A DNA stretch of 64,000 bases, taken from Mobula hypostoma. Its lineage: Eukaryota. The position numbers and the translations under genes are program-made. Shown in pieces: positions 1,455 to 39,600 of the stretch. Location of the stretch: contig NC_086108.1 in assembly GCF_963921235.1 (NCBI RefSeq), forward strand, positions 57,414,001 through 57,478,000, given 5' to 3'. A model generated the notes under the pieces. The model ran no database searches. It was not told the DNA's origin and was given only the letters and a program-made list of their open reading frames with translations. The stretch's first letter is position 1. The number at the start of each line of letters is the position of its first letter.

Positions 1455-1647
1455 GTTTAGTGGTTGCATTGATCATTTTGCAGCTACGGAGGAAGAAGCA
1501 TACAAATGTACCAGGAATATCATAGCCGGTTTAAATTTTGAACTTCCAACAAACATGCCAACTGATTTTGAAGAGCCGCTGTATGCAGCTGAAGAACTAA
1601 ATGGTCTTGCTCCAAAAGATTATGCACATACCTTAAACATTGAATTG
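1455..1647 (+). CDS. MCCC2L: MCCC2-like coding exon ([31 protein letters not shown]...[26 protein letters not shown])
   Basis: ttttttcag acceptor, gtgagt donor, 193 nt, phase 2 to 0; aligns with MCCC2 SGVSDH...EEPLFPADEL. Confidence 0.9.
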
Positions 1648-4600: not shown

Positions 4601-7600
4601 TTCCATCAGTTTCCTGACTTGTGCCTTGTAAGTCATGGAAAGGCCTTGTTGAGTCAGGAGGTGTTCCTCCTAGCCTGTCAGTTTTTTTCTTACCTAACTT
4701 CTCTGGGGCTCAGTGTTGTTTTCCGTACAGTTAAGATCACCTACATTATTTATTTCCTGCATTTGCTTCATCAGTAATTCCCTGTTGAGTTACAGATTAT
4801 TTTTGTTAACTGTCTCTATAGACAGATGGAAAGTGATTGTGGATGATTCAAATCAGCTCCAGTCACATTAGAGCAGGGGTTCCCAAGCTGGGGTCCACAG
4901 ACCCCTTGGTTAATGGTAGGGCTCCATGGCATCAAAAAAAGAGTGGGATCCCCTGCTCTACAGGCATGAGCTGACAATGTTTCAGTACATGCCTATTTAT
5001 TTCTAGAGTAATGTTAGTATCCCTTTTTATTGCATTGTCACATACCATATTCCAACTGTGATTGAAACTAACTTGTTTCCTCCTCTTTGCAGTTTAAAGG
5101 TGTATTAGAAAATTACTAGTTATTCAAAATTTGTTGTCATAATTTTAAATCAAATCTTGCAGAGTAATAAACAGTAGCTGGCCAACATGATTTGGAGCAT
5201 CCTTTAAGTACCTGCTTTGGCTGTGGAAGCCAAGTCGTTGGGTATATTTAAAGCAGATGTTGATAGGTTCTTGATTAGTAAAGGTACCAGAAGTTACAGG
5301 GAGAAAGCAGGTGAATGGGGTTGAGAGTGAAAATATTTCAGCCATGATCAAATGGTAGAGCAGACTCAATGGGGTGAATGGACTAATTCTGCTCCTGTAC
5401 TTCCTGAGACATTTTCTTACATTTTCATTTGAGTTTTGGCCAATATTGAACATCTAGATCACTAAACTTGGATCATCTGGTCATTACTCCATTACTTTTT
5501 CTGCAAACACCAAACACCACACTTTCAATATTACAACGGTGACAATGCTTCAAAAAATATTGAGTTGATCATAAATATTTTGGATTGTCCTAAGATCCTG
5601 GAAAGTTTTGTGTAAATGTGGGTCTTTCTGGAATCCCTGTACTCCAAACTGATCAGCAAGAGCAGTAGGTAGAATGTTTGTACAGTCACAAAAAACACTC
5701 AGCTTCAGATATGCATATCTCCATTAACTCTTGGTCTGATATCTACTATGTTCAGAATGAGTTAATCACTGCATTACCTCACTTGCTTGTTGACTGGTCT
5801 TTCAATCTTCGAAGGATGATGAGGGAGAAATTCTTTTTGTACCGCTCGTTCAGAAAATGTATTTTGCACTTCATTAGATTATTTAGCTCAATTGTTTTCC
5901 TTTCCAGTACTCTACTTCTCAAATTAATTAACCACATGAGGTTATTTCTAACAATACATGTGTTACTTTATCTAGGAGAATGTATGCAATAAATACTAAG
6001 AGACATTGGGTAATGAGCAAGAGCATAACCCAACAATAACCAAGAGAGATCAGATAATCACAGCAAGGATTGAGTATATTTCGTCACTATAGTATAAAAA
6101 TAATAGGGCCACAAATGCTGGAATCTGGAACAAAAAAACCCCTAAAAGCTGGAAAAACTCACTGGATTGAGCAGAATCTGCATATGCAAAGCACTCAAGC
6201 AGAATGGCCATCCTGCCCATCAAAGTGAAAAGAAAATGGCATAATGTTGAACTTATGCTATTTTTCATTTGTCTTCTGCGTTTGAAGTAATGAATGAAAA
6301 AAGACATAGTTTTCGCTATTATATTAAATTAATTTATGTCCATTTCCTTGTAGCATCAATTTAGCCACATTTTGAGTAATGAAATACTGGATGTTAAAAG
6401 TTTTTAATATTCTACAGATACTAAGTCGTTTGACGGATGGAAGTAAATTCTTGGAGTTCAAAGCTTTGTATGGGACCACGCTGGTAACTGGCTTTGCTCA
6501 AATTAAAGGGTAAGGAATAATAGATTGCAGTTTTCTTCTTTTTTATTTAAAATAATACTGAATTTAACCAAGCATTATGTACTTTATGTAATACAGTGTT
6601 GGGAAGTGTATAGTCATGCACTTTGGGAGAAGAAATGAAAAGGTTGACTATTTACTAAATGGAGAAAATACAAAAAACTGAGGTGCAAAGGGACTTGAGA
6701 GTCCTTGTGCAGGATTCCCTAAAGGTTAATTTGTAGCTTGAGTATGTGGTGAGAAAGGTAAATGCGATCTTTGCATTCAAAAGGGCGAGAATATAAAAGT
6801 AAGGATGTGATGTTGAGACTTTATAAAGCACTGGTGAGGCCTCACTTGGATAATTGTGAGCAGGTTTAGGCCCCCTATCTTAGAAAGGATGTGCTGAAAC
6901 TGGAGAGGGCTCAAAGGAGGTTCATGAAAATGATTTCCAGGATTGAATGGCTTTTCATTTGAAGAGCATTTGATGGCTCCGGGCCTGTGTTCACTAGAAT
7001 TCAAAAGAATGAGGGGCGACCTCATTGAAACCTTTTGAATGGTGAGAAACCTTGAAACCTTAATAGAGTGGATGTGGAGAGTCTAAGACCAGAGGACACA
7101 GCCCTAGAGTAGAGAGGTGTCCTTTAGAATGGAGATGAAGAGGAATTTCTTTAGCCAGAGAGTGGTGTATCTGTGGAATTCATTGTCATAGGCAGCTGTG
7201 GAGGCCAAGTCTGTAGGTATATTTAAGGCAGTGGTTGACAAATTCTTGGTTGGTCAGGGCATGAAGGAATAGGGGGAGAAGGCAGGAGACTGGGGTGAGA
7301 GGAAAAATGGATCAACCATGACGGAATGGCGGAGCAGACTCGATGGGCCAAATGGCCTAATTCTGCTCCTATATCTTATCGTCTTATGACTTTTCTGTTA
7401 TATTATTTGCTGAATAATTTCATTTTACTTCTAAGGTATCTGATGTCGCTACATCTTCTTTTATTCCTTTACATTTGATGTTCTTGACTACTGGATTTCA
7501 CTTCCTATCTTATTGAAAAAAACAATAACTGTACTTAATGCTCCTCCCGTAACACAGTGCTGAGAACTACATCATCTAGCATATTTAAACAAGTGAAAAG

Positions 7601-10600
7601 AAGATTATTAATCAAAAGGTGCAGCAATCCTTTTATTTGTTCAGAAATGGGGACTGATTATTAACCTGGTTTGTCTGATAGAAATGGGGCATAGTGGAAA
7701 TAAATCATTGTGCGCCATTCTGGCTAAGTGGAAGCATTCCCTTCAGTGCTTTCACTATCTAAATCATTGTCCTATGAATTATGTAGTACCTCTAGGTGAT
7801 TTCGATGGACAATTCCACAGAATGTGAACGGTTAGTATACACAATTTCTGTAGCAACATGCACAAAATGCTGGAGAAACTCAGCAGGTCAGGCAGTGTCC
7901 ATGGAAATGAGCAAACAGTTTACGCTTTGGGTGAAGATCCTTCTTTAGGACCAATTTTATTTTGCTCAGTTGAAGCTAGAGGGGAGGTGGTATTAAGAAG
8001 AAAGTGACAATTCATGTCGTAAATGAATATTTAATTTTGTGATGATATTGGTGTTAGAAGGAACAAGAATGCCAAAAAAATAAAGGTACCTTGTTACCCA
8101 CTCCTCCTTGATCTGCTTTCTACACACCCAAAGCACTAAGCTACCATCTTTCAATCTTGTCCCCAGTGACATGTAATATTGTGCTGGTAAGTGTGCTGCT
8201 ATAGAATATCTGTTCAGGGTGTACAGTTTGATGTCTGTGTAGTAATGAGGCACAGCTCTCAAAATAAACTAGAACCTTTTACTGCCAGAAACAGATGTTT
8301 TTTTTCACACCTCTTGCAGATCTAACCAACAGCTTTCACAACTAATTTCTAATGGCTTTAGCTATTGTCTTCCTTCAGGTGTTAATGTTCTTGATATTTG
8401 GATTTTTGAAATGTTTTTGAGAAGATCTCCTATGGGAGACTGGTCGATTAAAAATAGTACAATGGTGCAGCTAGTAGAGCCATGGTCTCACAGTACAGCA
8501 AACTGGATTCCGTCCTGAAATTGAGTGCTATCTCTCTGGAGTTCACACACTGTAGAGTCATAGAGCAATACATCACAGATACAGACCCTTCAGCTAACTG
8601 CATTGTCTAGCCAGCCAGTCACAATTTGTTGCGTTTGGCCTACAGGCTTTAAGATCTATAGTGACATCCCCCTTAACAAAAAGACATCAACCCTCTCCTC
8701 ACTGACTTCTACCTCTGTCATGTCTGTATGGTCTGTATCCTGGAGCATTGAGTTGCCAATCCCTGCCTTCTCTCGGCCAAGTTTCTGTCATGGTTATGAC
8801 ATCCCAGTCCCCAGACCCAATCCTTTCTCTCAGTTCGACTGCCTCCTGTTAAGTATGTGCTTTGAAATAAATGCAGTTTAGCTGAGTATTAATTTCCCTC
8901 CCTACACTATCCCTCTGGCTATCTTAATTACTAAACTTACTCTTGTAGGCTACTGCTTTATCTCATGACTTTCTCCTTTTCAGAGTCCCAACCCTTGTCA
9001 ATCGAGTTTAAACTCTCATAGAAACATAGAAAACCTACAGCACAATACAGGCCCTTCAGCCCACAAAGCTGTGCCGAACATGTTCTTATCTGAGAAATTA
9101 CCTAGGGTTACCCATAGCCCTCTATTTTTCTAAGCTCCATGTACCTATCCAGGAGTCTCTTAAAAGACCCTATTGTATCCGCCTCCACCACCGCGCTGGC
9201 AGCCCATTCCACGCACTCACCACTCTCTGCGTTAAAAAAACTTAACCCTGACATCTCTGTACCTACTTCCAAGCACCTTGAAATTGTGCCCTCTCATTCT
9301 AGCCATTTCAGCCCTGGGAAAAAGCCTCTGACTATCCACACGATCAATGCCTCTCATCATCTTGTACACCTCTATCAGGTCACCTGTCATCCTCTGTCGC
9401 TCCAAGGAGAAAAGGCCAAGTTCACTCAACCTATTCTCATAAGGCATGCTCCCCAATCCAGGCAACATCCTTGTAAATCTCCTCTGCACCCTTTCTATGG
9501 TTTCCACATCCTTCCTGTAGTGAGGCGACCAGAACTGAGCACAGTTCTCCAAGTGGGGTCTGACTAGGGTCCTATATAGCTGCAACATTACCTCTCGGCT
9601 CTTAAACTCAATCCCACAATTGATGAAGGCCAATGCACTGTATGCCTTCTTAACCACACAGTCAACCTGCACAGCAGTTTTGAGTGTCCTATGGACTTGG
9701 ACTCTAAGATCCCTCTGATCCTCCACACTGCCAAGAGTCTTACCATTAATGCTATATTCTGACATCATATTTGACCTACCAAAATGAACCACCTTATACT
9801 TAACTGGGTTGAACTCCATTTGCCACTTCTCAGCCCAGTTTTGCATCCTATCAATATCCCGCTGTAACCTCTGACAGCCCTCCACACTATCCACAACACC
9901 TCCAACCTTTGTGTCATCAGCAAATTTACTAACCCATCTCTCCACTTCCTCATCTAGGTCATTTATAAAAATCGTGAAGATTAGGGGTCCTAGAACAGAT
10001 CCTTGAGGCACACCACTGGTCACCGACCTCCATTGACCCACCTACAACCAGTCTTTGCCTTCTGTGGGCAAGCCAGTTCTGGATCCACTAGGGAATGCCC
10101 CCTTGGATCCCATGCCTCCTTACTTTCTCAATAAGCCTTGCATGGGGTACCTTATCAAATGCCTTGCTGAAATCCATATACACTACATCTACTGCTCTAC
10201 CTTCATCAATGTGTTTAGTCACATCCTCAAAAAATTCAATCAGGATTGTAAGGCATGACCTGCCTTTGACAAAGCCATGCTGATTATTCCTAATCATCGG
10301 TATCTTCTCCATCAACTTACCAACCACTGAAGTAAGACTCACTGGTCTATAATTTCCTGGGCTATCCCTACTCCCTTTCTTGAATAAGGGAACAACATCC
10401 ACAACCTTCCAATCCTCCAGAACCTCTCCTGTCCCCATTGATGATGAAAAGATGATCGCCAGAGGCTCAGCAATCTCCTCCCTCGCCTCCCACAGTAGAC
10501 TGGGGTCATCTCATCTGGTCCCGGTGACTTATCCAACTTGATGCTTTCCAAAACTCCAGCAAATCCTCTTCCTTAATATCTACATGCTCAAGCTTTTCAG

Positions 10601-16600: not shown

Positions 16601-19600
16601 GATTTACAAACTTAGTTACCCTACATTTTCTGCCCTCATGCACTGGCATGTGGAATGTAATGAAAAAGTAGTCAGATATGTTCATATTTGCACCTAGGTT
16701 TTCTGGTTTGGTGAATAATGTTGCATTTAAATTTGTTCTTTTTTTTAAAGTGATTTGATAAATGAGTCCTTTACCATTTAATGGGTATAATATTAATCCC
16801 TGTGCAATATATAGGAATTGATTCAATGCAAGAAATATTCAGTTAGCATCTTTAATTTAGGAAAAATTAAAAGATTTAGGAATCGTCAAGATCCCCAAAA
16901 TGTCAAAATGTGGATTGGGCTTGAAAATATATTTGTGAGTATCCAGAGCAACAGAGGCAAATTTCTTGCCATTGCTTGTAGATTCTTTGATGTTAGAAGG
17001 AAGTTGAAGATTTTCTGTGTTTGATGCATTTGGAATACCCAGCACTATAGATATCTGTTACTAGCTTCTCATTTAGGAATCTCAGTCTGAGAGAAGCATG
17101 GGAGCAGCAGTAACAACCAGAATATGGTTTGGTACTAAACCACATAGTTTTCTTTTATTTTTTCATTTTGTATGATGTGGACACTGCTGACAAGGTCCAA
17201 ATTTATTAGCAATTGAAAATGAGTGCAATCTTACTGAAATGTACAAAACCTAAGAAGGTAGATGTAATATTTTTTCTAATCTAGTGTCTCTATTGGATTC
17301 ACAGTCTCAGAATAGGGAGTTAGTCATTCAAGACGAACACACACAGATTGCTGGTGGAAGTCAGCAGGTCAGGCAGCATCTATGGAAATGAATAAACAGT
17401 CGACTTTCAGGCTGAGACCCTTCTTCAGGAGTGGAAAGGAAGGGGGAAGAAGCCAGAATAAGAAGGTGGGGTGAAGGGAAGGAGTGTAAGCTAGAAGGTG
17501 ATAGGTGAAGCCAGGTAGGTGGTGGGATTGGGGAATGATGTAAGAAGCTGGGAAGTGATAGGTGGAAAAGTTAAAGGGCTGGAGAAGAAGGAATCTGATA
17601 GGAGAGGAGAAGGGGAAGGAAGAGCAGGAAAAAGTAACAGAAGTTGGAGAAATCGATGTTCATGTCATCAGGTTCAAAGCCCCCAAATCGTATATGAGGT
17701 GTTGCTTCTCCAACTTGAAATTGGCGTTGTGGTAGCAGTAGAAGGGGCCATAGACTGATATGTCCAAATGGGAATGGGAATTGGAAGGTGCTCGCCAAAA
17801 CGGTCCCCAATCTACTTTGGGTCTGTTACGTACCCAGTAACTGGGTTGCCAAACCAGCAGAAATGGATCACTCAGTTGGAGTCTGGATTACTAGAACTAA
17901 GAAAGTTTTATTAAAGGAACAAGCAACACAGTACTCTAATCAAAAGGATAATAAATGCAACAGTTCAGCAATGATAAACACACATGTACACAGAATTAGG
18001 ATAACAGGATCAATCAAGCTCTATCGTCGTCTAGGGGTAAATGACCAGTTTCAAAGTGACGCAAAGTTCAGTTCAATTGAATTCAGTTCAGTTCGCAGTA
18101 ATCACTGCCGTGGGAGATGGACAGTGGGGGGAAGGAGAGAGAGAGCAAAACGAATGAATATTCAAACGGCTTCCACACAGACCTTCGATATTCTTCGCAG
18201 TCAGCTTTCGGGCGAGCCCTTTGTGATGTCTTCTGAGGTCACCGACCATGACCCCTCCGTTTCCAGATACAATCGTTTCTCTGCGGTGAACCCAGCACCC
18301 AGGTAAGGGTGGACACACACCAGGTTCCCGCCGATCGTACCTTTCCACCCTGTGTGTCTATGGCTTGGTCCCGCGACCAGCCCTCCAAAACTTCCCACTG
18401 ACTTATGGGAGGCGCACTGCTTCCAGTGTCTCGTTACCTCGTGGTGTCGTGTGCGTCTTGCCTTAGCGAGCCTGTCCCTCTTTATCCCCCTGCTGGGGTA
18501 TCGCCTGTCCATCACTTCACACAGTTCAGGGTTCAAAGGGGGAGCCGATCTTGACAGCTCTCCTTCCGTTAAACTCTCCCGTCCCTTCATTAACATCTCC
18601 AAATGCTGCTCCATTGTTTTCCTTATCTCTCTTTCTCCTGAAGACAGGTGGCAGACCAACTGCTGATCCCACTGGTGCCAGCACAGGACAGCTAACATCT
18701 TAATCTATGTGTATTCTCGTCACAGGTCTCACCAATGTAGGGGAGGCCGCACCATGAACACTGAACACTGAACACAGTAGACAACTCCAACAGATTTGGA
18801 GGTATAGTGTTGTCTCATTTAGCCCAGAATGGAGGTGAGGGAGGAAGTAAGTGTGCAGGTGTAGCTCTTCTACTGCTTGTAGCGATTACCAGGAGGTAGA
18901 TTAGTGGGGAGGGATGAATGGACAAGGGAATCACAGAGAGAGCAATCCCAGCAGAAACTGGAGAGTGGGTAGGGAAGGTAAGGATCTGGTAATTTTCCCC
19001 CTCCCCTTCCCTTTTCTTCCCAGGTGCCCCTCGTTCTTCCCTTTCTCTCATGGTCCACTCTCTTTTCCTATCAAATTCCTTCTTCTCCAGTCTTTTCCTT
19101 TTCCAATTATCGTCTCCCAGCTTCTTACTTCACCCCCCTCCCCCACCCACCAGGCTTCATCATTACCTTCTTGCTTCTACTTCTTCCTTTTCATCCACCT
19201 TCTTATTCTGGCTTTTTCTCCTTCCTTTCCAGTTCTGATAAAGGGTCTTGGCCCAAAATGTCAATTATTCATTTCCACAGATGTTGCCTAACCTGCTGAG
19301 TTCTTCCAGTACTTTGTATATGTTGCTCTGAACTTTTGGCATCTGCAGAATCTCTTGTGTTTATCATTAGAGACAACGTTGAGAAGATATTTCTTCACCC
19401 TGAGATAGTGAATCTTTGGAATCAAAAGAACTGTTGAGGCTTAATTGTTAAATATGTATCTCCTCAAGATTCCTTTTCTGGTTTTTGCAGTGAGGTGTTA
19501 ACTGTTATTACTTATGCTCAGTTATGTGCACATTGTGATACCTGACTGTGAATACAATGTGTTTTGTTTTCAGTCACCTTGTTGGAATTGTGGCTAACAA

Positions 19601-22600
19601 CGGAGAACTCACTCATAATGCCTCACTAAAAGGCAGCCATTTTGTACAACTTTGTGACCAGAGAGGCATTCCTATCATATTTCTTCAGAATACAAGACCA
19701 AATGTTTCAATCGCAGGGACAATACCCAAGGTACAAGAGTAATATTTGATGTATCTGGATTGCGGTTCTATTTCTTTCCTGAAAACGTGAGAGTAATCAT
19801 TTTGGTAGCTAGCAAACGTAACAGCATCAAGAGTTAATCTCTATATTTTTATTTATTAATGCTTTGGGAGATTATTCTTTAAAGTAAAGCACATTAGTGT
19901 TAAAATTAATCCAATATTTTAAAAATATTTAGTATATACCTGAAGTGCAAAGACCAATTCGAGCCTGGATTAATCCAATGATCTGCAACAATGATCTCTG
20001 GCAGAATGGAAATGAATTGATTTGGGAATAGGTATGATTTTCCATCTCAAGATGAGAAAAGATTTGGATTGCATTTTGGATTCCAGCTTGGAATAACTGA
20101 GAGTTGAAAGTGCCATGAAATTCAGTAGCCTTTTTTCATTTAAGAAGTAGTCAAATAACCTGAGAATCTTTACTGTCTTAGCTCACAGTTAAGCAGTGAT
20201 CATTAGGCAGATGTTGAAGATCTGTCATGGTGTACCAGATCTTGAGTCAATGCCCTCCAGAGAGGTTTAAGAGAAAGCTGAATGGTGAAAAGTTGAAGAA
20301 ATTATGTCTTTACTGTATGTATAGATGCTTGAAAATGTCATTTTTTTCAACCTGTCAGGTTTTTCCGGTACAAGTGATGTGCTAGTGCCTATTTCAGCTT
20401 TAGAATGGCCTAATGTAGCCTGGGTTATGGTGGAGAGTAGAGTGACAACCACTAACCAAGTCTATCCTCAGCAACAAAAAGATGTGGAAAGTGGTAGTTA
20501 AGCAGCAGTGGACATGAATGGTCAGGTTGTTGAAGGAGACAAAACCACAATAAAAGGACGGAGTTTTTACAAAACATAATTATGCTGAGACACTTAAACA
20601 TTCCAGCTACATGAGAAGCACAAAAGTATGCACCTACCCAGTCCTTGGTTCTCTTCACTGGGTATTCACCTAGTGAGAAATCTGCAGTAGAATGAAAATT
20701 ACAAGACTCCAAGATTCAGATGGGATTTTACTGGGGAGGTTTCAATAATAAAGGGTAACTGACTGTCTTTCTCTCTACATGTAGTTAGGACTGAAGTTGT
20801 TTCCTTATGAATACTCTTCCTCACTTCTTTGATCTTGGGTGTTGTATACATTACAGGTTGGTTAACCCTTCCTTCATTACAAACGCAGACTTAGGGAAAG
20901 AATTGAGTATATGGTTCGATTGCCATTATTAGACCGAAGTCTGGACCTATGAATACAGATACAGCGCACAAATCGAAGGATTTATCATCTTAATAGATTC
21001 AAATGTGTGTGTGTGGTGGAGTCATTAGGGTGCCGTCATGACAAGCTTTTGCACCGATCTTTTTGGTATGCTCATCGTACGTCGTGTCTTGGACATCTGA
21101 AACCTGGCGGAGCCCATCCCTCTCCAGGTTTTTTTTTACGAGGTCGAGTTGTTAGCTTGACACTCAACCCAGGCACGGATGGAGAGCGTGCAAGGGAGCC
21201 GGCCGGATTCGAACTAGGGACTTCTCGCCCTGAAGTCCAGCGCTGATGCCACTGGAAGATTCAAATACCTTATGATTAAGAGCTTCCGGTCAAGATGGCG
21301 CCAGCAAACAACGATTCCTCAGGCGACATCTTCCAGATAGTCAATTATTTCAGTTTTTCTACATCTTCTACTTATTCTTTTTATCTTAATTTTGTTTTTG
21401 AAACTCTTGGAGCCTGTGACTTACACTCTGTAGTTCGATCAAGTGAGCTAGCATTCTGCTGTCCATGAGAAAACTCCAGGAGAGAAATGCAAGCACAAGC
21501 TACCATGAGGGGAGGCTCAGAGACGAGATGAGGGGCTGTGATCAACTACATTTCTCACCGATTAAAGCGTCAAGGAAGATTGAAACATTAAGGCAAGTGT
21601 GGAGGAGAGCGAGCAGTTCTTGGAGAGGCCGCTGGGTTCGAGTCACAGCCGTCAGAGCGGCCACTGGTTTCAGTTGTTTCCCTCGGAGGGGCTGCTGGTT
21701 CGAGTCGATGCTCTTGGAGATGTTATTGAAATTCTGGGATTTATGGATTGGACTGTAGTTCAAACTAACTGTAGTTCACATTGGCATCTTTCAATTCTAT
21801 TTCTTTTTTGTGTTCTTGCCCATTCTTTCTTGTTGTCGATTGACAGGCGAGGAGTTTGGAGTTTGATTTTCTTGTTGTTTCTCCATGTGCGTGATCTGTT
21901 AGTTTTTGTGCGAAGGAGTGGTTGGAGTTTGGGGTTTTCGAGCTGTTGTTTCTTTTTTTCCTTTTTGTGCGAGGTGATTGGTGTCTTTCTTTCAACTACT
22001 TCTATGGCCATGAGTATTATCTGACTATCTGGAGAAGACAAATCTCAGAGTTGTATTCTACATACATATTTTGATAATAAAATGAACCTTTGAATCTTTG
22101 AAAATTAGTTAAATTTACACTCTTTGTCTGGTCTGTGAAGTTAACAGGATTATTAATATTTCATAGACTCTGGTTGAGGGCTCTATGTACAGCAGCTTAG
22201 ACACAGTATTTGGATGAGGACACTGAAATTGTAGTCAGTGTGAAGACAGCTTAGCTCTGGGGTTATCAGTAGTAGGTGGTCAAGAGTTAACACAGGAAAT
22301 GTGTATATTAAATCCTTGTTTTACAGTAACTGGAAATCAAAGACCTACTAATACTGAAAATACTGATTTTCCAAGTCTGCTTTCCCTTGAAATGAACAAT
22401 AATCTAAGTATTTTAAAAGTAATGATGCATGTATTCTTTTGCACAATGTGAAAAAATATGTTCTTTATGTCTTGTTGGAGGTCTAAAGTAAAGGATATTA
22501 AACATTGCAATGATTATATCATGCTTTATGTGCACATTAATTTTGTACAATGTGACAAATTCCTTAATGGTTGTCTTTATAGGCAGAAGATGTTACAAAC

Positions 22601-25600
22601 CAACTTAAGGCCCAAGGCTCCATGATAGCATCTGTGGCATGTGCCTCTGTTCCCAAGATAACCATTGTAATTGGAGGATGCTATGGTGGTGAAAGTTTTG
22701 CCATGGTATATTCTAGAAGTTTTACTGTATGATATTTGTATAAGTGAATTACTTTTCTATATGGAAAGATGTTTTGTTGAGGTATATGAATATATTGGCA
22801 ATTCATTTTGTTAAATATGTAATTTATATTCCTATATTTCCCTTTGAGTTGGGGTTAAATCTTCAGTAAGATTTCAGGTGAAATTTTGAACTATACAATG
22901 CAGAAAGAATCTGGGTTCAGTGCTCAATCAGTTAGCTGCTCATTATTGTGCTATGGATATTTAAATTGTTCTCAGACAACTAAGCAAGAAAGTAAACAGA
23001 GCACAAATTATTTTTCTCATTCTGCTGAACGGAGCACATACATTGGGGGTGAAATCAAGTTATTTTTCTAGCTTGGTGGTTACCATGGTCAGCATGAATG
23101 AGTTGGGCTTTTTACATGCTATATGGATTCTATTCGGTTGCTCTGCATTGCCTTCATGGCTTCAAACCCTATACGTCTCACTAGGGGTTTTCCTTCTCTG
23201 TAATGGGATTTGGTCTCACATGGTGGTTTTGCCATTATGTTAGCCCATTGTTACAGATCTTTTTCTGCCTGTAAGAATTGAGGGATAACTAATAGAAAGT
23301 TGGATTGTCCACCATCTGATACAATGTACACTCTGACTCATGAATAATATTTCAATGAAATTTTTAATTTTATGTTTCAGTGTGGTAGATCGTTTGATCC
23401 AAACTTCCTTTTTCTGTGGCCTAATGCCAGGATTGGACTGGTTAACTCCAGTTACTGCTCTAAGTTCCTGGAAAATGATGGAGAGATCCCAGATGAAGGA
23501 CAGTGGAAGATCATGAAAGAAAAGTTAGTACTAAGTCTGTTTGAGTGGAGAAAAAAATAATCTGTCATTTATATTAACAACAAAAGCAAATGATCTACTT
23601 AATATATAATCAAGTGTGCAGGTTTGTTTCTGGGCCATCAAACTTAATTTAGTTTTAGTTTCACGTAAATGTTAAAGTTATATTTGGTTTGCTTTGCGCC
23701 CTGAGACTCTTTTCCCAGAACAAAGTGCTTCACAAGGTAATTTCAAATTGCACTTTAAAAGTAAACCACATTGCTGTGGATATAACAAACAGGCCAGAAT
23801 GGTTAAGGATAGCAGATATTCTCCCTGAAGGATATTAATGAATTAAATTAGGGTTTATTGTTGTCATTATTATTAAGACAGATACTTTTTATTATATTCC
23901 AGATTTATAATTATACTTATTAACAGCTTCCTTGATGTGAATTGAATCAAATTCTTCAGCACAGGTTAATGGCACAATAATTTATCCACTATGCATCACT
24001 GTATATGAAACATCCATCGATTGAAATACAGACTTCGTATTTTTCATTTTCATAGAATTAAGATATATTAGTTTTCAATTGACTGTACCAGAATAGATAT
24101 TCATCACCATGTTCAACCAAGCTTAGAAACTTCTGATTGGATAGGTCTCTTTTCTGTAGGCTGGAGGTCGAGAGCTCCGCTTTTCACTCTTCCTCTCGGA
24201 TTTGGGATGATGGCGTCATACTTCCTGCAGACACTCGGACGGTAAGCTCGCACTTTCACCAAAGCCTCTATTTCTTTAAAGTTTCTTTTCTGCATTTTTC
24301 TTCTTCCATTGCCGAGATATTCCTGCAGCATCTGGATTCACTCTGTATCATAGCCCAGGGGTTACTTACAATATGTGTTTTTATTTTATGTTCCAAGCTG
24401 GCAAATGAGCTGCATCTCTTAGGTTTATTAACTTTTCCAGAGATCAGGACTTTTTCGAGATCATCTGAATGTTGTCCCTGAGAGTTTTTATTTTTACTTC
24501 AGATGTAATGTCATCTATATCACAGAAGAAGTATTTTGGTGAACTAGAGTAAATCTGTGCGTCTGGAAATAAGTAAGCATGAAACCTAGCAGTATAAGTT
24601 TTGATGATTTTCCCTTCTGCTGTCTTCTAAAAGCAAGGCCATGCTTAGGAAATTATTCCAAGGGCATCAGTTGTAGTTCTCCTGCAATCAAATAGTTCAT
24701 TCTTCATATGTCAGTGTATGTCGCTCCACAGAGTAACAAACTCTTCAGTTGTGCAAGACAAATACTGATCCTGCCTACTTAACCGCAGATGTAATCCTCC
24801 CTATGGGACTCACCTCAGAATGAATAAACAGGATGAATTATTCTCCCCTCTATTACTCAAAGGTACTGAGACTTCTTGAAATATCATTATTACTATAGCA
24901 GCTTACATAAACTATCCAAGCACAAACAGAATTGTAATTCTACTAGCCTGGATTAATTATTACTGCCCTGAACATTCTGATTTGTGTGAACATCTTAGTT
25001 CATTTAAGTTCCATTGAGGTAAAGCAATTTGAGACATTTGGAAAGGAGAAAGATGAACATGGTGATGCCCTCTAACAAACCAAGTTTATAGATTATTGCT
25101 TTATTGATCCATCTGCTGAATTTCTATGTAATCATATTCTCTCCATGTTGGAATCCTCCCATCCATTATTAGGCTGTAGATGAAAGGCACTCCGAAGATT
25201 TCATTTCAAAATAGAAATTACTTGCAATATTATTTCCCCTGAATGTTCCAACTAATTCAATTCAATTCTTCCACAAACATTGCTTGCCTGATATGATTCC
25301 AGCCATTTATGTTTTGTATAGTTTGCATTGTGGTTTGAGTTTCTCCTGTTTTCTGTGTTTGTAATAACATTTTCCTCCTCCTCCTCCTCCTCCTGCAGTA
25401 AAACTCCATTCAGTTTCAAAATCTTAACCATTCAGCTCACCTGTGATAGATTTAATATGGATTCACTTTCAGAATTGGTTGTAAATCAGAATCAGGTTTA
25501 ATATCATCAGCATATGTTGTGAAATTTGTTGTCTTTGCAGCAGCAGTACAATACAATACATAAAAAAAGAAAAAAACATGAAATACAGTGTGATATATAG

Positions 25601-28522
25601 TTAAATTAAATAAGCTGTGCAAAAATAGACGTAAGAAGTAGTGAGGTAGTGTTTATGGGTTTAATGCCCATTCGTAAATCTGATGGCAGAGGGGAAGAGG
25701 TTATTCCTGAATCACTGAGAGTATGCCTTTTTCCTGATGGTAGCAATGAGAAGAGAACATGTCCTGAGGGATGGGGGTCCTTAATGATGGATTCCACCTT
25801 TTTGAGGCATCGCTCCTTGAAGACATCCTGGATACTATAGAGGCTGGTGTCCATGATGGAGCTGACTAAGTTTACAAATCTCTGCAGCTTATTTTGATCT
25901 TGTGTGGTAGCCTCAGCCCCATATCAGACGGTAATGTAGCCACTTAGAAAGTGCTCTATGGAACATCTGTAGAAATTTGCAGACTTTCCAAATCTCCTCA
26001 AACTCCTAATGAAATATAGCTGTTGTTATGCCTTCTTTGTAGCTGCATTGATATGCTGGGTCCAGGATAGATCCTCAGAGATGATGACACTCAGCAGCTT
26101 GAAATTGCTCACTCTTTCCACTTCTGATCCCTCTATTACGACTGAGGTGCGTTCCCACGACTTACCCTTTCTGAAGTCCACAATCAGTTCTTGGTTCTTA
26201 TTGATGCTGAATGCAAATCAGTTATGTTCTTAGCAACTTAAAAATATCATAGTCCTTTTGTTATGCAACTGCTAAAAATCTGCAAATATCATAAATACAT
26301 GAGTCTATTAGCAGCTTGAAAAGGTGAACCTGATGTACTCTCTGTCACGTGAACTTTCTAGTTCCATTGTGTATTTCTTGGTTTTAAAGATTACCCTATT
26401 TGTTTCATTTAACTACACCCAATTCTATAGAATCAAAGTTTCTGCCAAATTGAAAGCACTTGTTTCGTGACTAAGTAAATAAGTACACCCTATCCTCGTT
26501 ATATGCAGGGGATGCTTTCCTCGCAGTCGACGCATAGAGTGGAAAACGCATAATGTGAATAATTATTTAAATAGAGAAAATAGGGATGCATTCTGGAGGG
26601 CTTCCTAAATATGTTTTATCTGTAATTTATTCACATTTTCATACCAATATTACACAAAAGCAGTACCACAAGGCAACATTCATATTATATTTCATCAATT
26701 TAAGGTAATATTCAATGTAATAAATCATAGAAAGTTAACATACTAGGGTGTACGGTATTCACCAACAGTGGCAGGTGTGTTGGCTCCGGGAGATGAGTGG
26801 ATGTGCAGTGGTGTCGGGCAGCTTTACATGGATGAGGTGGATGGTTGTGTGTCGTCAGGATCATCAAGGACAGTAAGGGGTGAAGGAAGACTCATAAAAC
26901 TCTCAGTACTGCCGACAGCAGGAGATGACACCGGTTTGAAGAAAGTGGTGAGGGTTGTTTGCTTGGCAGAATTTTGTTTTTCAGCATAAATTTGCTTGTA
27001 GGGAAGAAGGATTGACTGCAGGGAATGACTGAAATGCTGACTTCGTTCTAAACTTGGGTCCATGTCCATCACCATTTGTGCCAAGTGTTCCGCAGCCTTA
27101 AAAAATTCTGCCAGTTGCTTCACCGTAAAATCCTTCACCTGCTACTCGACACTTTCTTCTTCATCGTTATCACCTTCAGTCTGAGTTAAATGCAGAAGGT
27201 CATCCACACTTATTTCTTCATCATGAAAATCCAGTAGTTCTACCACGTCAGCAGTCTCAAGATCTGAGAATCCTTCCCCACCAACAGGAAGCATATTCTT
27301 ACTCAAACCCTTAACAGCACGGGTGTTTAGTGAATGGTAAACTAAGAGAGGCTTCATTTTACAGTCTGCTTCGGCGTTGGAACACATAAGCAGAGTCAAC
27401 TTATCCTTTGCTGCCTTGAAACCTGACGCTGTCTTTTCATCCTTACTTACGTAAGTGCGTTTCGGCATACGCTTCCAAAAAAGCCCGTTCTCGTCTGCAT
27501 TAAACACCCGCTTTGGCGTGATGCTTAACTCAGCTATCATAGCCCGCAACTGCAAAGGGTAGCGTTTAGCAGCTTTGTGGTCAGCACTAGCTTGCTCACC
27601 ACGCACAGCTAAGTTGTGAAGCCCGTGACGATTAACAAACTTAGAAAACCATCCCTTACTTGCATTAAAGCTAACAATATCACTTGACACTTCCTCACTA
27701 GCCTCTGAACAAAGGCGACCATAAATTTCTAAAGCTTTCACACGAAGATGATCAGAACTGAGTGTTGTTTTTTTCTTTGTTTCATGCTCAATGTACAAAC
27801 TCAACATCTTCTCCATTTTTGTCATAATCAGGTTATGCACTTTGGTAACAATCTTTGAAGACACTTGTGATGAATCAATCACTGCACTTTTTATTTTCTC
27901 AGCATTTTTCTTTATGTTTCTGATCTTGGACTCACCCAGACCGAAGTAGCATCCCAGAGCTGTGTTACCTTCACCTGACACTGCCCTGTTTATAATTTCC
28001 AACTTTTTTTCAAGTGTTAAAGCGGTTCTTTGCTGCTTGGCTGATGGCCCAGGACTTGACATAGGATGCTAAGGAGGCATAGTTAAATATTTCAAGCACA
28101 AAATCAGTGAACCGTAGGTAATAACAACAAAAGTTTAAGAGCACAAGATCGCACATCCACACGCCAAAACCAATGCGAGAATGGCGGGAGTGAGACTGTG
28201 AGGCATGCGCACATGACTTGTATTGTCGGGAAAGCGGTGCTTCTCATCCTAACAGCCTCGCAGAACTGAGAGTTTTGGACGCATACAAGGAGAAGTTGGT
28301 AGAAATTGGTTCGACGCATAGCAATGAATCTGCATCGTCTGTCGACGCATATAACGGGGATAGGGTACAGGGCTTTGAAGGAAATGTAATGTTATGTTTC
28401 TGATTATTAAATCTAATTGTGCTGTTTCTATATTACAGATAATTGGTCGGTGTTTAAATATCTTCAAACAGAAACCTTGGTTTCGTTCTCGTATAGAAAG
28501 GCAGGTTATATTGAGAACGTAA
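1455..28522 (+). CDS. MCCC2L: MCCC2-like (methylcrotonoyl-CoA carboxylase beta-like / carboxyltransferase) gene, 3' part; spliced CDS join(1455-1647,6418-6509,19574-19730,22583-22705,23381-23523,24160-24241,28439-28522); 5' exons lie upstream of the window
   Basis: Seven exons with canonical AG/GT sites and compatible phases give one open frame colinear with the C-terminal half of MCCC2 ([83 protein letters not shown]). Divergence indicates a paralogue rather than MCCC2 itself; the symbol is provisional. Confidence 0.88.
2850..3140 (-). mobile_element. tRNA-derived V-SINE (HE1-like) with CR1-type tail
   Basis: tRNA-like head with GAGTTCAATCC B box, V-domain (gttctcccc...ttttctcc...ccaaa...ggttaatt), tail gggcctgttccatgctgtacctctaaataaataaa. 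Confidence 0.7.
4874..4955. mobile_element. Tiny hAT-type MITE remnant
   Basis: CAGGGGTTCCCA...TGGGATCCCCTG terminal inverted repeats; imperfect 8-bp flanks (cattagag/ctctacag). Confidence 0.55.
6418..6509 (+). CDS. MCCC2L: MCCC2-like coding exon ([31 protein letters not shown])
   Basis: ctacag acceptor, gtaagg donor, 92 nt; strong match to the carboxyltransferase DGSxFxEFKAxYGxTLVTGFA motif. Confidence 0.93.
6590..7390 (+). mobile_element. CR1 LINE 3' fragment
   Basis: Decayed ORF2 end ([12 protein letters not shown]...RMRGDLIE), 3'UTR gaatggcggagcagactcgatgggcc and tcttat repeat tail. Confidence 0.85.
9017..10615 (-). mobile_element. CR1 LINE, 5'-truncated, RT region (ORFs 9232..10041, 10088..10438, 10339..10551)
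   Basis: [30 protein letters not shown] and FADD RT motifs; (tttctatg) tail at 9017-9032; frameshifts and internal deletions. Confidence 0.95.
10620..11645 (-). mobile_element. Older CR1 ORF1 remnant (zinc finger plus esterase-like region) with a Penelope-end fragment at about 11355-11450
   Basis: Minus strand reads [10 protein letters not shown]...CGKC-like zinc finger at about 11490-11590, followed by decayed CR1 ORF1-like sequence. Confidence 0.55.
12093..12668 (-). mobile_element. Rex1/Babar LINE 3' fragment
   Basis: YFLRSL...[23 protein letters not shown] motif; AATAAA plus (ctttgaa)n tail. Confidence 0.88.
12765..13870 (+). mobile_element. Highly decayed CR1 (+) interrupted by an inverted CR1 3' fragment (about 13102-13330)
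   Basis: Degenerate GSVLGP, KFADD and [15 protein letters not shown] nucleotide matches plus CR1 3'UTR. Confidence 0.65.
17335..19365 (-). mobile_element. Penelope-like element 3' part (GIY-YIG endonuclease remnant) with an inverted terminal copy at about 19000-19365, split by a solo LTR
   Basis: With 17824-18724 removed, the minus strand reads GVVYC...[14 protein letters not shown]. The same purine/pyrimidine-rich terminal repeat is present in opposite orientations at the two ends. Confidence 0.85.
17824..18724 (-). mobile_element. Solo LTR (901 bp, probably Gypsy-type)
   Basis: TGTTACG...CGTCACA termini, exact 4-bp TSD GGTC, minus-strand AATAAA at 17907-17912 near the 3' end, CpG-rich. 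Confidence 0.85.
19574..19730 (+). CDS. MCCC2L: MCCC2-like coding exon ([52 protein letters not shown])
   Basis: gttttcag acceptor, gtacaa donor, 157 nt; lies within ORF 19548..19742. Confidence 0.92.
21005..21256 (-). mobile_element. Young tRNA-derived SINE with (CA)n tail
   Basis: 10-bp TSD AGATTCAAAT (20995-21004 and 21257-21266); A-box-like AGTGGCATCAGCG and B box GTTCGAATCC; CpGs retained. Confidence 0.8.
21283..22102 (+). mobile_element. Non-coding non-autonomous retroelement with a Rex1/Babar-type 3' tail
   Basis: Begins CTTCCGGTCAAGATGGCGCC; ends AATAAAATGAACCTTTGAATCTTTGAA, like the tail at 12093-12120; no recognisable ORF. Confidence 0.6.
22583..22705 (+). CDS. MCCC2L: MCCC2-like coding exon ([41 protein letters not shown])
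   Basis: ctttatag acceptor, gtatat donor, 123 nt, phase 0-0; aligns with MCCC2 [25 protein letters not shown]. Confidence 0.92.
23381..23523 (+). CDS. MCCC2L: MCCC2-like coding exon ([48 protein letters not shown])
   Basis: gtttcag acceptor, gttagt donor, 143 nt; WPNARI motif. Confidence 0.9.
24160..24241 (+). CDS. MCCC2L: MCCC2-like coding exon ([27 protein letters not shown])
   Basis: tttctgtag acceptor, gtaagc donor, 82 nt; WDDG(V/I)IxPADTR motif. Confidence 0.92.
25485..26215 (-). mobile_element. Rex1/Babar LINE 3' fragment
   Basis: [30 protein letters not shown] motif; (ctgatt)n tail. Confidence 0.87.
26486..28367 (-). mobile_element. Tigger/pogo (Tc1-mariner superfamily) DNA transposon, internally deleted
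   Basis: About 21-bp TIRs (ACCCTATCCTCGTTATATGC / GCATATAACGGGGATAGGGT), TA on the left flank; transposase with CENP-B-type HTH domains, [23 protein letters not shown] and the start of DDE_1. Confidence 0.92.
26824..28080 (-). pseudogene. Tigger-like transposase pseudogene (ORFs 27142..28062 and 26824..27138 in one frame)
   Basis: ATG CCT CCT TAG at 28080 and TAG at 27142-27144 interrupt a single frame; most of the DDE core is missing between KNMLPV and GGEGFSD. Confidence 0.85.
28439..28522 (+). CDS. MCCC2L: MCCC2-like terminal coding exon ([27 protein letters not shown])
   Basis: tattacag acceptor in the required phase 0; length and ending (ILRT vs IFRM) fit the MCCC2 C-terminus; several AATAAA follow at about 28650-28770. 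Confidence 0.75.
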   Translation: MIGRCLNIFKQKPWFRSRIERQVILRT

Positions 28523-34112: not shown

Positions 34113-34718
34113 ACCATGAGACCATAAGACAAAGGAGCAGAAGCCGGCCATTCGGCCGATCGAGTCTGCTCTGCCATTTTATCATGAGCTGATCCATTCT
34201 CCCATTTAGTCCCACTCCCCTGCCTTCTCACCATAACCTTTGATGCCCTGGCTACTCAGATACCTATCAATCTCTGCCTTAAATACACCCAATGACTTGG
34301 CCTCCACTGCCGCCAGCGGCAACAAATTCCATAGATTCACCACCCTCTGGCTAAAAAAATTTCTTCACATCTCTGTTCTGAATGAGAGCCCTTCAATCCT
34401 AAAGTCATGCCCTCTCGTACTAGACCCCCTCATCATGGGAAACAACTTTGCCACATCCACCCTGTCCATGCCTTTCAACATTCGAAATGTTTCTATGAGG
34501 TCTCCCCTCATTCTTCTAAACTCCAAGGAATACAGTCCAAGAGCGGACAAACATTGCTCATATGTTAACCCTCTCATTCCTGGAATCACTCTAGTGAATC
34601 TTCTCTGTACCCTCTCCATCGTCAGCACATCCTTTCTTAAATAAGGAGACCAAAACTGCCCACAGTACTCCAAGTGAGGTCTCACCAGTGCCTTATAGAG
34701 CCTCAACATCACATCCCT
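34113..34718 (-). mobile_element. CR1 LINE 3' fragment
   Basis: [25 protein letters not shown]...[10 protein letters not shown]; tcttatgg-type tail. Confidence 0.92.
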
Positions 34719-36306
34719 ACAGATGCAATAAAAATAGACTGGGTGAATTTTACAAGAGAAGATAAAGATGAGGTATACTTTCAAAGGGATGGAAAGAGTA
34801 GCAGCGCATTTTAAGGAACAGGGTTTGAAAAGGGAGAATCATCTGAAGGAATTGTTTATATTACTAGTGAGTACAAGAGAAAGCATCTGAGTGTTCAGGA
34901 AGCAAAGGAGGAGGTTTCAAAGAAGAAGGAAGTTGTTAATATTGATATCCAGTACTTGGAAAGTCCTGAGGAGATTATGGGAGAAAAGAAGGGGTCAAGG
35001 TGAAATGTTGGGACCAGGAGGTTGCTTGGAGCCATAACAGCTAAAGCTCAGATTCTAGAAATAAAATTGTAAATGTTTCTTGTGCTTTAGGACAAAGCTG
35101 ATGGTGAATGGAATACATGGAAATATGGAAATCCTTCCTTGCTTTTGATTATAAGGTCCTCAGCTAAAGGTTGTAGTTTAAACACAAAATTATTCAATAT
35201 CAAAAATTCCATCTGTATTTATGATACAATAATTCTAATGCGATTAGACTTGTTTATCATATTGGCAATCTCATTTAATGATAATGGTTCATTCTGCTCT
35301 TATTAATGGATTGTGCAAATTAAGGGTGTATCTCAGCTTCATGATTATTTTCTATATATACAATGTGAGCCTCAGTGACTATTGACAAGTTACAGAGTGT
35401 GGCGGGGCAGATAGAATGCAAGATAAGAACCAACTGATTCTTCCTCCTCTATCCTAATTACCAAATCCAACTATACCATTCTGTTTTGCCTTAGATTACA
35501 TTCCGTTTAGATTTGCTGACTAAGGAACTAACTCAGTCAAACAGAACTAAGCAATCTCTTGTCTTTTACTCATTAGGTTAGCATCATAAATTCACAAATG
35601 CACAACTTGAAGGGATGGATTATCGTCAGAATACTCATTTTATAACAATGATCTAGACTGGATTTTTCAATAGTTAACTTGCTGTTGCTACAGGTATTTG
35701 ACAATAAAGAAATGGCAATTAATTTTTTTCCTTTATTTTCTAAGGGTTTTTGTTTGAATTCTCGAATTATTGCAAATTCTATGGTTAAGATTATTGCTCA
35801 GGTTTCTGTAGGGGTTACAGTACTCCCAGTCTCTGCAGAAAGACAGAAGTATTTACCTTCTCTGTAAATGATAATCTTACAGGAGATGTGAAGACTCACT
35901 CATGGAATATTTGCATCTTTCTCTTGGCAGCATGTTGTGCAAGGCTTCCATTACTTAATTAAATTTAATTAATTGGATTTAATTAAGTTAATTAAAGGTC
36001 TCTGTGATATGCAAATGAACAGTCTATGTTGCACAAATGTTTGCTTCCTCCACTAGGTTTGATGTAGCTGGGAGCCATACAGAGGTTTTCACTTGGGCTG
36101 AAATCCAGAGGAATGCAAATGGCATGGCTCAAGGAGCATGGAATTCTGATGTACATTTTGCTGAACACAACATTAAGAATGAAGTAACTAACAATCTAGC
36201 CTTTTTTTGGGACATTAACTTCTTTGTTGCTCTGTTAAGCTGTGATGTCATAGAATGAATGCTTGGTTTCATGCAGAAAACCAATATTGGCTTAAACTAA
36301 TTTCAA

Positions 36307-36600: not shown

Positions 36601-39600
36601 CTGTGAACAGAAAGAAAATTGTCATTGCACTTAAATGATGAAAGAATTTTCAGACAAGAACTTCTTTCTGTACCAGGGCACAGTTTAAACAATCCCTCGC
36701 ACAGCTTGCCCTCTTGCCTGCCTGTAACTGTGAACTCCAGGCTCCCACTCAAGTCCTTTTAAGACAAAGCTTCATATTAAGCAGATAGCTTATCACGTGA
36801 GATGTATGAATGTTAGGTTTTAATTTTCATTGCTCACTTTTTGGGTTGCTTTTATGAAAGAGAAAGGTTTATTTAATATTTCACAGGAATAGACTTGCTC
36901 AAGTGAGGCCAACTGTACCAACAAAGCTAGTTACAAACAAACCACCAATGCAAAGACAGACATTATACAACAATTCAATGTAAAGAAGTCTAAAATCACA
37001 TGCAAGACACTAAATCAAGTTGCTAAGAATTCTATTTGCAATCATGGAGAAAAGCACCCCCTCTCCTTTTAAAGAACATTACAGTTACTCAAGTCCACAG
37101 AATTTATGTGCAGGTTCAAGAGACCTAAAATATTTCCAAAACCTGTGTGCAAATATGCTGTGGAGCTTCATTAATTAGAACTGCACAGATGACTGAAACA
37201 CAATATTGCCAACTTTTGCCAAACTAGAGTCAATTCTGCCTGCTCAGATTCTCACCTTCCCAATCAATTGTAATTAAAAGACAAACTACTCAGGACACAG
37301 TAACAGATTACACCGGTCCTCTCATTACTTGCTACACCGCAAAACTTATCATGAATGACAGTGATGCTTCACTCCCGGATGAGCTCAATGCCATTTACGC
37401 ATGCTTCGAAAGGGAAAATAAAAAGAAGGCGGAGCTTAGGAGAGTTAATGGCGCCTAACGGCAACTCCCTTGTTTGCATCTTCGGAAACAGCTCTATTTC
37501 CATCTTTAATATCTCGATTTTTCCCTTTCAGGGTTCTTTTGAAGCTCCTGACCTGGAGTTACACGCTGACTACGGTTCTTTGCGAGAATGGGACCCGCTG
37601 TCGGGGTTTCACAACTGGCCATTATTCAGCACGCCAAGGGCTCAGCCTTAGAGCTCCACTCGCCTTCAGAGCACTGAGTTTTTGTGGCTTTGGAGACCAG
37701 AGTTGGGGGGTGGGGATTGGAGGTTAGTGTCCGAGCAGAAGATTGGTGTGTCGTGGGAGATAGAAGATCTAAGGCTGTGTGCCCAGAGACATGAGATCTT
37801 TGGGCACTGAGCTCGGAAAAAGCGAAGCAATGGACTTTTAACATTGTAAACTAGTGAGTTGTTTGTTATGTCTCCCCTCTTGCTGTGAAACAGAGGCACC
37901 TCTTTCTCCCTTATTATGTCAAATGCTGGGTGAACAAGTAGTCTTTGGAGTACTCCAGGTCTGTGTCGTTGTCTGTTGCCTTGTTCACACTTGAGTGCTC
38001 GGTGGTGGGTGCCGATGCTTTTTTTGCTGGTTGGGGGGAGGGGGGATTGTTGCTTTCTCCCGCTTACAGGAGGGAGGGGAGCTCGGGGGGGGGACTTTGG
38101 GGTTCTAACATTTAACTGTTGTTCATTCTTTGGGGGCACTCCTCTGTTTTTGTGGATGTTTGCGAAGAAAAAGCATTTCAAGATGTATATTGTATACATT
38201 TCTCTGACATTAAATGTACCTTTGAAACCTTTGAAAAACTACAGCTATCAAGATCCCTGCAGCACCCGGTGACTCTTTGATCTTTGTCTCGGAGGCTGAC
38301 TTCAGGTCATCTTTCAAGAGGGTGCAAGGCGACAATTCCTGATGGGTACCCGGTAGGGCTCTGAAAACTTGTGCCAACCAACTGGCAGGTGCGTTCAAAG
38401 ACATTTTCAATCTCTCATTGCTACAGGCAGAAGTTCCTACCTTCTTCAAAGGGCCAACAATCATCCCAGTGCCCAAGAGTAGGGTGAGTTACCTGAATGA
38501 CTATCGTCCAATAGCACTCACATCTATGGTGATGGAGTGCTTTGAGAGGTTGGTTATGGCTAAAATCAACTCCTGTCTCAGCAAGGACCTGGACCCACTG
38601 CAGTTTGCCTATCATCACAATAGGTCTACATAAGATGCAATCTCATTGGCTGTTCAGGCATTCTTGGATCACCTGGACAATACTAATACTTACGTCAGCG
38701 TGCTGCTTATTGACTACAGCTTAGCATTTAATACAATCATTCCTACAGGTCTGATCAAAAAGCTCCAAAACCTGGGCCTCTGTACCTCCCTCTGTAACTG
38801 GATCCTCAACTTCCTTACCAGAAGACCAGTCTGTGTGGATCAGAAATAACATCACCTCACTAATAATCAACACTGGCACACCTGAAGGAAGTGTGCTTAG
38901 CCCACTGCTCTACTCTTTCTACACCCATGACTGTGTGGCTAGGTGCAGCTCAAGTGACAGCTATCAATTTGGTGACAACACAACTATTGTTGCCAGAATT
39001 TCAGATGATGACGAGAAGGCATACAGGAGCAAGATTCATCAACTAGTTGAGTGGTATCACAGCAAAAACCTTACACTCAGCGTCAGTAAGATCAAAAAAC
39101 TGAAGGTGGACTTCAGAACAGTAAGTCAAGGGAACACATACTAGTACTCATAGAGGGATCAGAAGGGGAAAGGGTGAGCAGTTTCAAATTCTCAGGTATG
39201 TCAGTATCTCTGAGGATCTACCGTGGCATCAACATATCAAAGCAGTTACAAAGAAGGCATGGCAGCAGCCATATTTCATTATGAGTTTGAGGAGATTTGG
39301 TTTGTCACCAAAGACCCTCACAAAGTTGTACAGATGTACAGTTGTACAAATGTGGGAATAAACAGGACCTTTTCAGAATGGCAGGCAGTGACTAGTGGGG
39401 TACTGCAAGGCTCAATGCTGGGACCCCAGTTGTTTACAATATATCTTGATGACTTAGACGAGGGAATTAAATGCAGCATCTCCAAGATTGCGGATGACAT
39501 GAAGCTGGGCAGCAGTGTTAGCTGTGAGGAGGATGCTAAGAGGATGCAGGGTGACTTGGATAGGTTGGGTGAGTGGGCAAATTCATGGCAGATGCAATTT

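Follow-up and report, generated by a model that had tools for sequence, protein, structure and literature searches.

What can a carboxyltransferase subunit still contribute once its biotin-binding half appears to have decayed? The question is raised by MCCC2L, a gene of the devil ray Mobula hypostoma whose 3′ part lies in a 64,000-nucleotide stretch of contig NC_086108.1 (positions 57,414,001 to 57,478,000, forward strand; hereafter the window), and which is related to MCCC2, encoding the β subunit of methylcrotonyl-coenzyme A (CoA) carboxylase (MCC). Seven in-phase exons between window positions 1455 and 28522 encode residues 336–625 of the ray MCCC2-like protein P0004 (source-named M. hypostoma), with zero differences between the joined exon translation and the protein, AG acceptors in 7/7 exons and GT donors in exons 1–6. 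An earlier sequence-only reading of the window described seven open, in-phase exons, which is borne out, although the span it marked (19574..23523) holds real exons but only three of the seven. It also regarded the N-terminal domain as beyond judgement, a view now superseded: the N-terminal exons are open, lie on the same contig 9–25 kb upstream of the window, and hold Gly258. The most informative change in the protein, from Phe191 (human numbering) to Gly, is in this half, outside that reading's view.

MCCC2L is a paralogue of MCCC2, since the canonical ray MCCC2 sits on another contig (C59), where HFGR and GGSYGAGNYGM are retained and one exon matches stingray and skate MCCC2 at 100% identity; the earlier proposal that the window gene does not encode a normal MCC β subunit has held, and it is not the only MCCC2 of the species. 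A search with the exon at 19575–19730 gave 563 matches from 570 candidates, the top two being 100% identical and named M. hypostoma ‘methylcrotonoyl-CoA carboxylase 2’; MCCC2L is already present in databases, under automatic MCC names. The orthologues are called MCCC2L in chicken and si:ch211-198n5.11 in zebrafish. Among the 120 matches listed out of 563, vertebrate orthologues extend through sharks, rays, chimaera, sturgeons, teleosts, coelacanth, lungfish, amphibians, turtles, crocodilians, tuatara and birds, with none from mammals, and to our knowledge the gene is absent in humans. More distant members are found in octopus, limpet, horseshoe crab, millipede, pseudoscorpion, sea spider, flatworm and the choanoflagellate Salpingoeca.

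MCCC2L is a real, conserved gene and not an incipient pseudogene, the outcome that the sequence-only reading had held open. The four introns between 19730 and 28439 are spliced out with GT..AG ends in contigs of three public runs (X1, X2 and X5), as are two of the four in a fourth run (X9), and both introns tested in two further runs were also skipped; these runs are not recorded as RNA, their RNA status is a guess, and the evidence used is the spliced joints of the contigs, not depth. Exon pieces of the X1 and X2 contigs have no differing letters among those listed. In relatives, 11 of the 14 listed exon differences are synonymous, giving a rough ratio of nonsynonymous to synonymous change (pN/pS) of 0.08, which is based on these 14 changes in two exons and does not include 21 further table rows. 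The view that MCCC2L is a duplicate undergoing decay, or a second β subunit of the ordinary MCC kind acting on methylcrotonyl-CoA, is already largely refuted and can be regarded as very improbable: the database name is that of MCC β, and MCCC2L evolves faster than MCCC2 (64–80% vs 91–95% identity in four matched species pairs), but the gene is open, spliced, kept from choanoflagellate to birds, and changes mostly at synonymous sites in the differences listed.

The N half carries the clearest functional signal. Gly258 aligns without a gap to human Phe191 (alignment over human residues 181–209), at what proved the most diagnostic column, referred to here as the gate. All 101 vertebrate rows without a gap at the gate (19 of the 120 are gapped) have Gly, as do 25 of 27 non-vertebrate members with a decayed C half, and the Gly-gate pattern occurs in 0/73 canonical β subunits. 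According to the accessible text of Jurado et al. (PMC4673880), Phe191 in MCC blocks geranyl-CoA, its equivalent in geranyl-CoA carboxylase (GCC) being Gly162; the geranyl pocket is built mainly by the N domain; and Phe versus Gly is offered as a classifier. The same text reports that MCC F191G gains activity on geranyl-CoA and is essentially inactive on methylcrotonyl-CoA, which also argues against MCCC2L as an ordinary MCC. Judged by this alignment, MCCC2L is a natural F191G. The acyl-CoA side around the gate is well kept: across 77 full-length orthologues, the N-site motifs score 0.97–0.99 for conservation, including 0.97 for the catalytic oxyanion motif GSCTAGGAY, and the acyl-CoA oxyanion hole itself is formed in the human enzyme by A218/G219.

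Among scored representatives (49 of 150), 19 of 23 Gly rows combine the Gly gate with a decayed C half, and 15 of 26 Phe rows combine Phe with all three C-half motifs; several Phe rows without these motifs look truncated or frameshifted. Three proteins (P0137, P0148 and P0153) have a genuine Phe191 and a decayed C half, with a Gly seven residues earlier, at the equivalent of human Val184, which is possibly a second way of widening the pocket. All decayed-C rows in the tree (24/24) have Gly at the 191 or 184 equivalent.

On the C half, the three altered hallmark motifs and shortened helical insert reported by the sequence-only reading were confirmed: the replaced segments align to human QNITGFMVG, GGSYGAGNYGM and RISVMGGEQAA, and the insert after the last is shorter. 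The GFxxG loop lines the biotin pocket, and human A447/G448 are the residues of the biotin oxyanion hole; Glu519 of MCCC2L aligns to Gly448, so the claim of a Glu at an oxyanion-hole position also stands. GFxxG, GAGNY and VMG were found in the C part of 0/101 vertebrate orthologues of at least 450 aa, G-x-[ED]-[SN] being present in 93 of these, and in canonical proteins of the same minimum length (n=73) the three motifs were present in 71, 73 and 71. At least 11 C-half positions that are 92–100% conserved in intact proteins are replaced in the decayed family, and some members have lost the lid. The lost invariants have no consistent replacement residue family-wide. MCCC2L is 59% identical to stingray MCCC2 over the N half and 44% over the C half, with the scaffold motifs WPNAR (0.99) and WDDG (1.0) kept in the 77 orthologues. 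The C-terminal site looks decayed rather than rebuilt, because the loop replacing GFMVG (0.58) and the lid (0.50) are the least conserved segments.

This qualifies the earlier proposal of a rebuilt site centred on the Glu: of the 99 vertebrate rows having a residue at this position, 94 carry Glu or Asp, whereas in the 27 non-vertebrate decayed members Asp, although commonest, accounts for only ten. The choanoflagellate and three Wallbacteria-like proteins have Ala at the position, and other members Val, Thr or Asn; a catalytic role for Glu519 is weakened, as the acid is not kept in more distant members. The same facts bear on an alternative that we consider unlikely, in which MCCC2L is a biotin-independent homo-oligomer whose N-half oxyanion hole would stabilise the dienolate of a large enoyl-CoA, with Glu/Asp519 as acid/base. 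Its activity, a suggestion to which we give the same low weight, would be that of an isomerase (e.g. trans/cis geranyl-CoA), a decarboxylase or a hydratase. Besides the substitutions just listed, it is opposed by the lid, through which the partner's C half closes the CoA pocket and which is variable or deleted, and by the placement of the acid, which opens a helix in the predicted model, a point at which acids are structurally favourable. The acid in vertebrates, the Asp of several invertebrates, an altered α-docking patch and a bacterial genome (G067) with a decayed β and no detected intact partner are consistent with it, and an isomerase would be useful because GCC takes only the cis isomer, according to the accessible text of PMC4673880.

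Structure prediction places MCCC2L with MCC. The model (mean predicted local distance difference test score, pLDDT, 77) includes a long N-terminal helix at residues 104–133; Foldseek ranked MCC β first (8j73; template modelling (TM) score 0.88 by target), with GCC β at 0.87 (PDB 5IKL) and propionyl-CoA carboxylase (PCC) at ~0.42, and the best sequence match was likewise MCC β (E 2e-155; GCC, E 1e-106). With MCC β subunits (human MCCC2, Pseudomonas LiuB, mycobacterial AccD1), MCCC2L shares the carboxyltransferase (CT) fold, N/C connectivity, the long N-terminal helix, the acyl-CoA oxyanion motif and a three-residue insertion before the gate; it differs from them in the gate Gly, the loss of GFMVG, GAGNY and VMGGEQAA, the shortened lid and the altered α-docking patch. 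With GCC β (Pseudomonas AtuC) it shares the gate Gly and hence a predicted larger pocket, but GCC β lacks the insertion. GCC, in the accessible descriptions, is a homohexamer with its own α subunit (AtuF), the biotin carrier being bound in its own CT site, whereas MCCC2L has lost the C motifs and no dedicated α subunit was found. The α subunit of glutaconyl-CoA decarboxylase (GcdA) has a CT fold lineage in common with MCCC2L (TM ~0.78) at 20% identity and serves as a template for the biotin-independent alternative, although GcdA is itself a biotin-dependent part of a sodium pump. In mycobacteria, AccD4(2)AccD5(4) is a mixed β hexamer, as described in the accessible text of PMC13012033, with two β paralogues of different acyl pockets and one α type in one ring, which resembles the co-assembly predicted for MCCC2L; it differs in belonging to the PCC lineage, in that both β types bind carrier domains, and in including AccE.

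Carboxylase partners in the ray were sought in locus searches that give lower bounds. Five biotin-carboxylase loci were found, for pyruvate carboxylase (PC), MCCC1, PCCA and two proteins like acetyl-CoA carboxylase (ACC); PC, MCCC1, PCCA and one ACC were assigned by best structure match, and the fifth is presumably ACC, to judge from its motif. One MCCC2 and one MCCC1 were found, and no extra α subunit, the search of the ray genome with an MCCC1 exon matching only itself and PC. The α-docking patch of Mycobacterium smegmatis AccD1 comprises D47, G53, S54 and F56 in the available part of bioRxiv 10.64898/2026.03.23.713199, and the Gly-Ser of the equivalent patch is lost in 17/17 aligned vertebrate MCCC2L rows. 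The altered docking, dead biotin side and retained acyl-CoA site would also suit a non-catalytic regulator or sensor, which would join MCC rings or bind long isoprenoid acyl-CoA and damp leucine catabolism, silencing the MCCC2 sites that face a dead C half. We think this improbable, given the conservation of GSCTAGGAY and a gate residue that is the one known to give new activity. An AtuA-family gene (PF07287; C9:99179680-99251824) is also present in the ray. Its uncharacterised orthologues, from sharks, fishes, coelacanth and a frog, go by the names lratb.1 or si:ch73-132f6.5; AtuA-like proteins are listed as lyases in the accessible portion of a review table (PMC12016498).

In our favoured reading, which we hold to be about evenly balanced between right and wrong, MCCC2L would be a specificity half-subunit, with an intact acyl-CoA half and a lost biotin half, that enters a mixed ring with MCCC2, MCCC1 likely giving carboxybiotin. 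The reading follows from the construction of each active site between two β subunits, the N half of one meeting the C half of another. Such a mixed site is the simplest account because it combines a catalytic, wide-pocket N half, the lost biotin side and lid, the kept scaffold and the lack of an α subunit of its own. A large 3-methyl-2-enoyl-CoA would sit in the N half of MCCC2L, carboxybiotin from MCCC1 would be received by the C half of MCCC2, and the product would arise by carboxylation of the γ-methyl of geranyl-CoA or of a longer 3-methyl-2-enoyl (isoprenoid) CoA ester, the reciprocal site, with the C half of MCCC2L, being idle. Acetate could then be removed by a hydratase together with a lyase, the latter perhaps the AtuA protein of animals (lratb.1), allowing β-oxidation to continue; the Pseudomonas terpene pathway is the model for this order. 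The N-terminus of MCCC2L is rich in Arg/Lys and resembles a mitochondrial presequence in composition only. Of the three functions offered by the sequence-only reading, action on another acyl-CoA and a half-inactive role are thus supported jointly, and the third, a biotin-independent enzyme, is kept as a rival.

Bacteria offer a parallel. A genome scan with P0183 gave 20 loci, three of them of the Gly type, and four Wallbacteria-like draft genomes encode a Gly-gate β, its C half being decayed in the three complete copies. Two of these genomes, G001 and G002, additionally have a single intact Phe-type β each, which in G001 directly precedes genes for AtuA, an enoyl-CoA hydratase and an α subunit, and in G002 lies ~16 kb from the AtuA/hydratase/α genes on the same contig. 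The three Wallbacteria-like Gly/decayed proteins are sister to the intact Phe-type β of one of their own genomes (N-domain tree, 100/96; 99/97 without the gate loop) and fall outside the animal and choanoflagellate clade (99/96), and this sister placement suggests a local duplication independent of animals. In the N-domain tree the included animal and choanoflagellate rows form one clade together with two unnamed rows (99/96), and an approximately unbiased (AU) test did not reject the joining of the animal MCCC2L clade to the MCCC2 clade (p 0.081). A single grouping of all decayed proteins, obtained with FastTree on whole proteins, was set aside as possible long-branch pull, since the N-domain trees split them. 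No carboxylase genes occur among the scanned neighbours of the Gly/decayed gene in L025, so this locus gives no direct operon evidence. Directly upstream of this β is a Pfam-tested YceI-like gene (L025:7159-7794), with similar open reading frames (ORFs) at L023:1633-2298 and L026:4741-5376; YceI binds polyisoprenoids.

Genome G067, which has an MCC-type α and only a decayed MCC-type β, bears also on a further alternative: that MCCC2L forms its own β6 ring with a remodelled site accepting MCCC1-borne biotin, as a stand-alone carboxylase of the geranyl type. Oxyanion holes use backbone NH groups, so that side-chain changes need not abolish them, and the fold is intact in the model. GCC-type and other Gly-gate proteins, however, keep the C motifs (4/4 intact Gly-gate rows among the 49 scored representatives), and the replacement of so many near-invariant C-half positions, with the lid deleted in some members, makes this a poor prospect, marginally more so than the regulator.

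Several observations weigh against the half-subunit reading. The Ser after the acid is kept in 93/99 vertebrate rows, and such retention of Glu/Asp-Ser is not predicted by pure decay; of YGG[ED]S, whose conservation the sequence-only reading proposed to check, both the acid and the Ser are kept in vertebrates, the acid not being kept in more distant members. A Gly gate accompanies an intact C half in 7/20 rows, so the gate alone does not imply a heteromer. The decayed state requires five changes on the tree, but a link between decay and a wide pocket can draw on just two independent pairs whose branches are supported (p 0.5), a number too small to test it, and the independent bacterial origin is borderline (AU p = 0.048). 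Two of the four genomes with a Gly-gate β yielded no intact MCC-type β: in G067 none was found, although an MCC-type α and AtuA are present, and in G003 none of intact β, α and AtuA was found, both being fragmented drafts of unstated completeness; G064 and G066 have an intact β only. A half-site subunit is without precedent in the accessible mycobacterial descriptions, because both β types engage the carrier. The physiological substrate of MCCC2L is a guess.

Two further groups of relatives stand apart from these comparisons. P0155, P0162 and P0149 (a dinoflagellate cluster, an unnamed source and Perkinsus) are single chains of biotin carboxylase, biotin carboxyl carrier protein and CT (BC-BCCP-CT), of the MCC lineage, with a Gly gate and an intact C half; the idea that relatives of ~1100 aa were AtuA-CT fusions was rejected, as their domains are those of BC-BCCP-CT single chains. 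P0184, P0210, P0217 and P0264 are metagenomic, apparently bacterial relatives of MCC β in which the N- and C-site motifs both look decayed, making them candidate pseudo-enzymes. Window features are collected in Table 1, along with repeats.

Table 1. Parts of MCCC2L and repeat-derived features in the window (window positions; LINE, long interspersed nuclear element; UTR, untranslated region).
Feature	Position	Strand	Support or remark
MCCC2L exon: end of CT-N domain and N-C linker, starting at P0004 residue 336	1455..1647	+	
MCCC2L exon: start of CT-C domain	6418..6509	+	
MCCC2L exon with loop replacing GFMVG (19686-19718)	19574..19730	+	spliced contigs
MCCC2L exon with segment equivalent to GGSYGAGNYGM (22673-22705)	22583..22705	+	spliced contigs
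Glu519 codon, equivalent of human MCCC2 Gly448 (biotin oxyanion hole)	22691..22693	+	opens a short helix in the predicted structure
MCCC2L exon with conserved WPNAR, then replaced VMGGEQAA motif (23429-23461) and shortened lid helix	23381..23523	+	spliced contigs
MCCC2L exon with conserved WDDG	24160..24241	+	spliced contigs
Last coding exon and stop codon	28439..28522	+	contigs run on into the 3′ UTR, to at least 28800
Very high-copy repeat in the intron preceding the last exon	25366-26307		summed contig depth in thousands in all four runs
308-codon open frame in the last intron	27142-28068	−	presumably a Tigger/pogo-type transposase, by resemblance
Fragment, which we take to be LINE reverse transcriptase-like	9232-10510	−	
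Fragment, which we take to be LINE reverse transcriptase-like	34365-34838	−	
Fragment, which we take to be LINE reverse transcriptase-like	39214-40497	+	
Fragment, which we take to be LINE reverse transcriptase-like	52828-53718	−	

GCC is described as bacterial in the accessible text of PMC4673880, and no report of GCC in vertebrates was found in a literature search that largely left subscription journals outside its coverage and did not cover supplements. Searches of the same kind, supplements again not covered, found no report of an MCCC2 paralogue lost in mammals or of a biotin-independent glutaconyl-CoA decarboxylase, and the literature on DUF1446 and on AtuA with lyase held nothing on the MCCC2L gene. 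MCCC2L and si:ch211-198n5.11 are each mentioned once, in gene lists only, in the accessible text of the sources found. A wider proposal, which we advance tentatively and regard as falling somewhat short of an even chance, is that in many animals, and independently in some bacteria, a half-site paralogue in the leucine carboxylase ring would make a geranyl- or long-isoprenoyl-CoA carboxylase, and that with lratb.1 it may constitute a hidden mitochondrial breakdown of acyclic isoprenoids in non-mammalian animals. If true, this would assign a role to an animal gene that is widely misannotated, and perhaps to lratb.1/AtuA as well; it would indicate that fish, amphibians, reptiles, birds and invertebrates have a route for 3-methyl-branched isoprenoid acids that has gone unrecognised; and it would clearly exemplify how a biotin carboxylase can acquire a new substrate by means of a complementing half-subunit.

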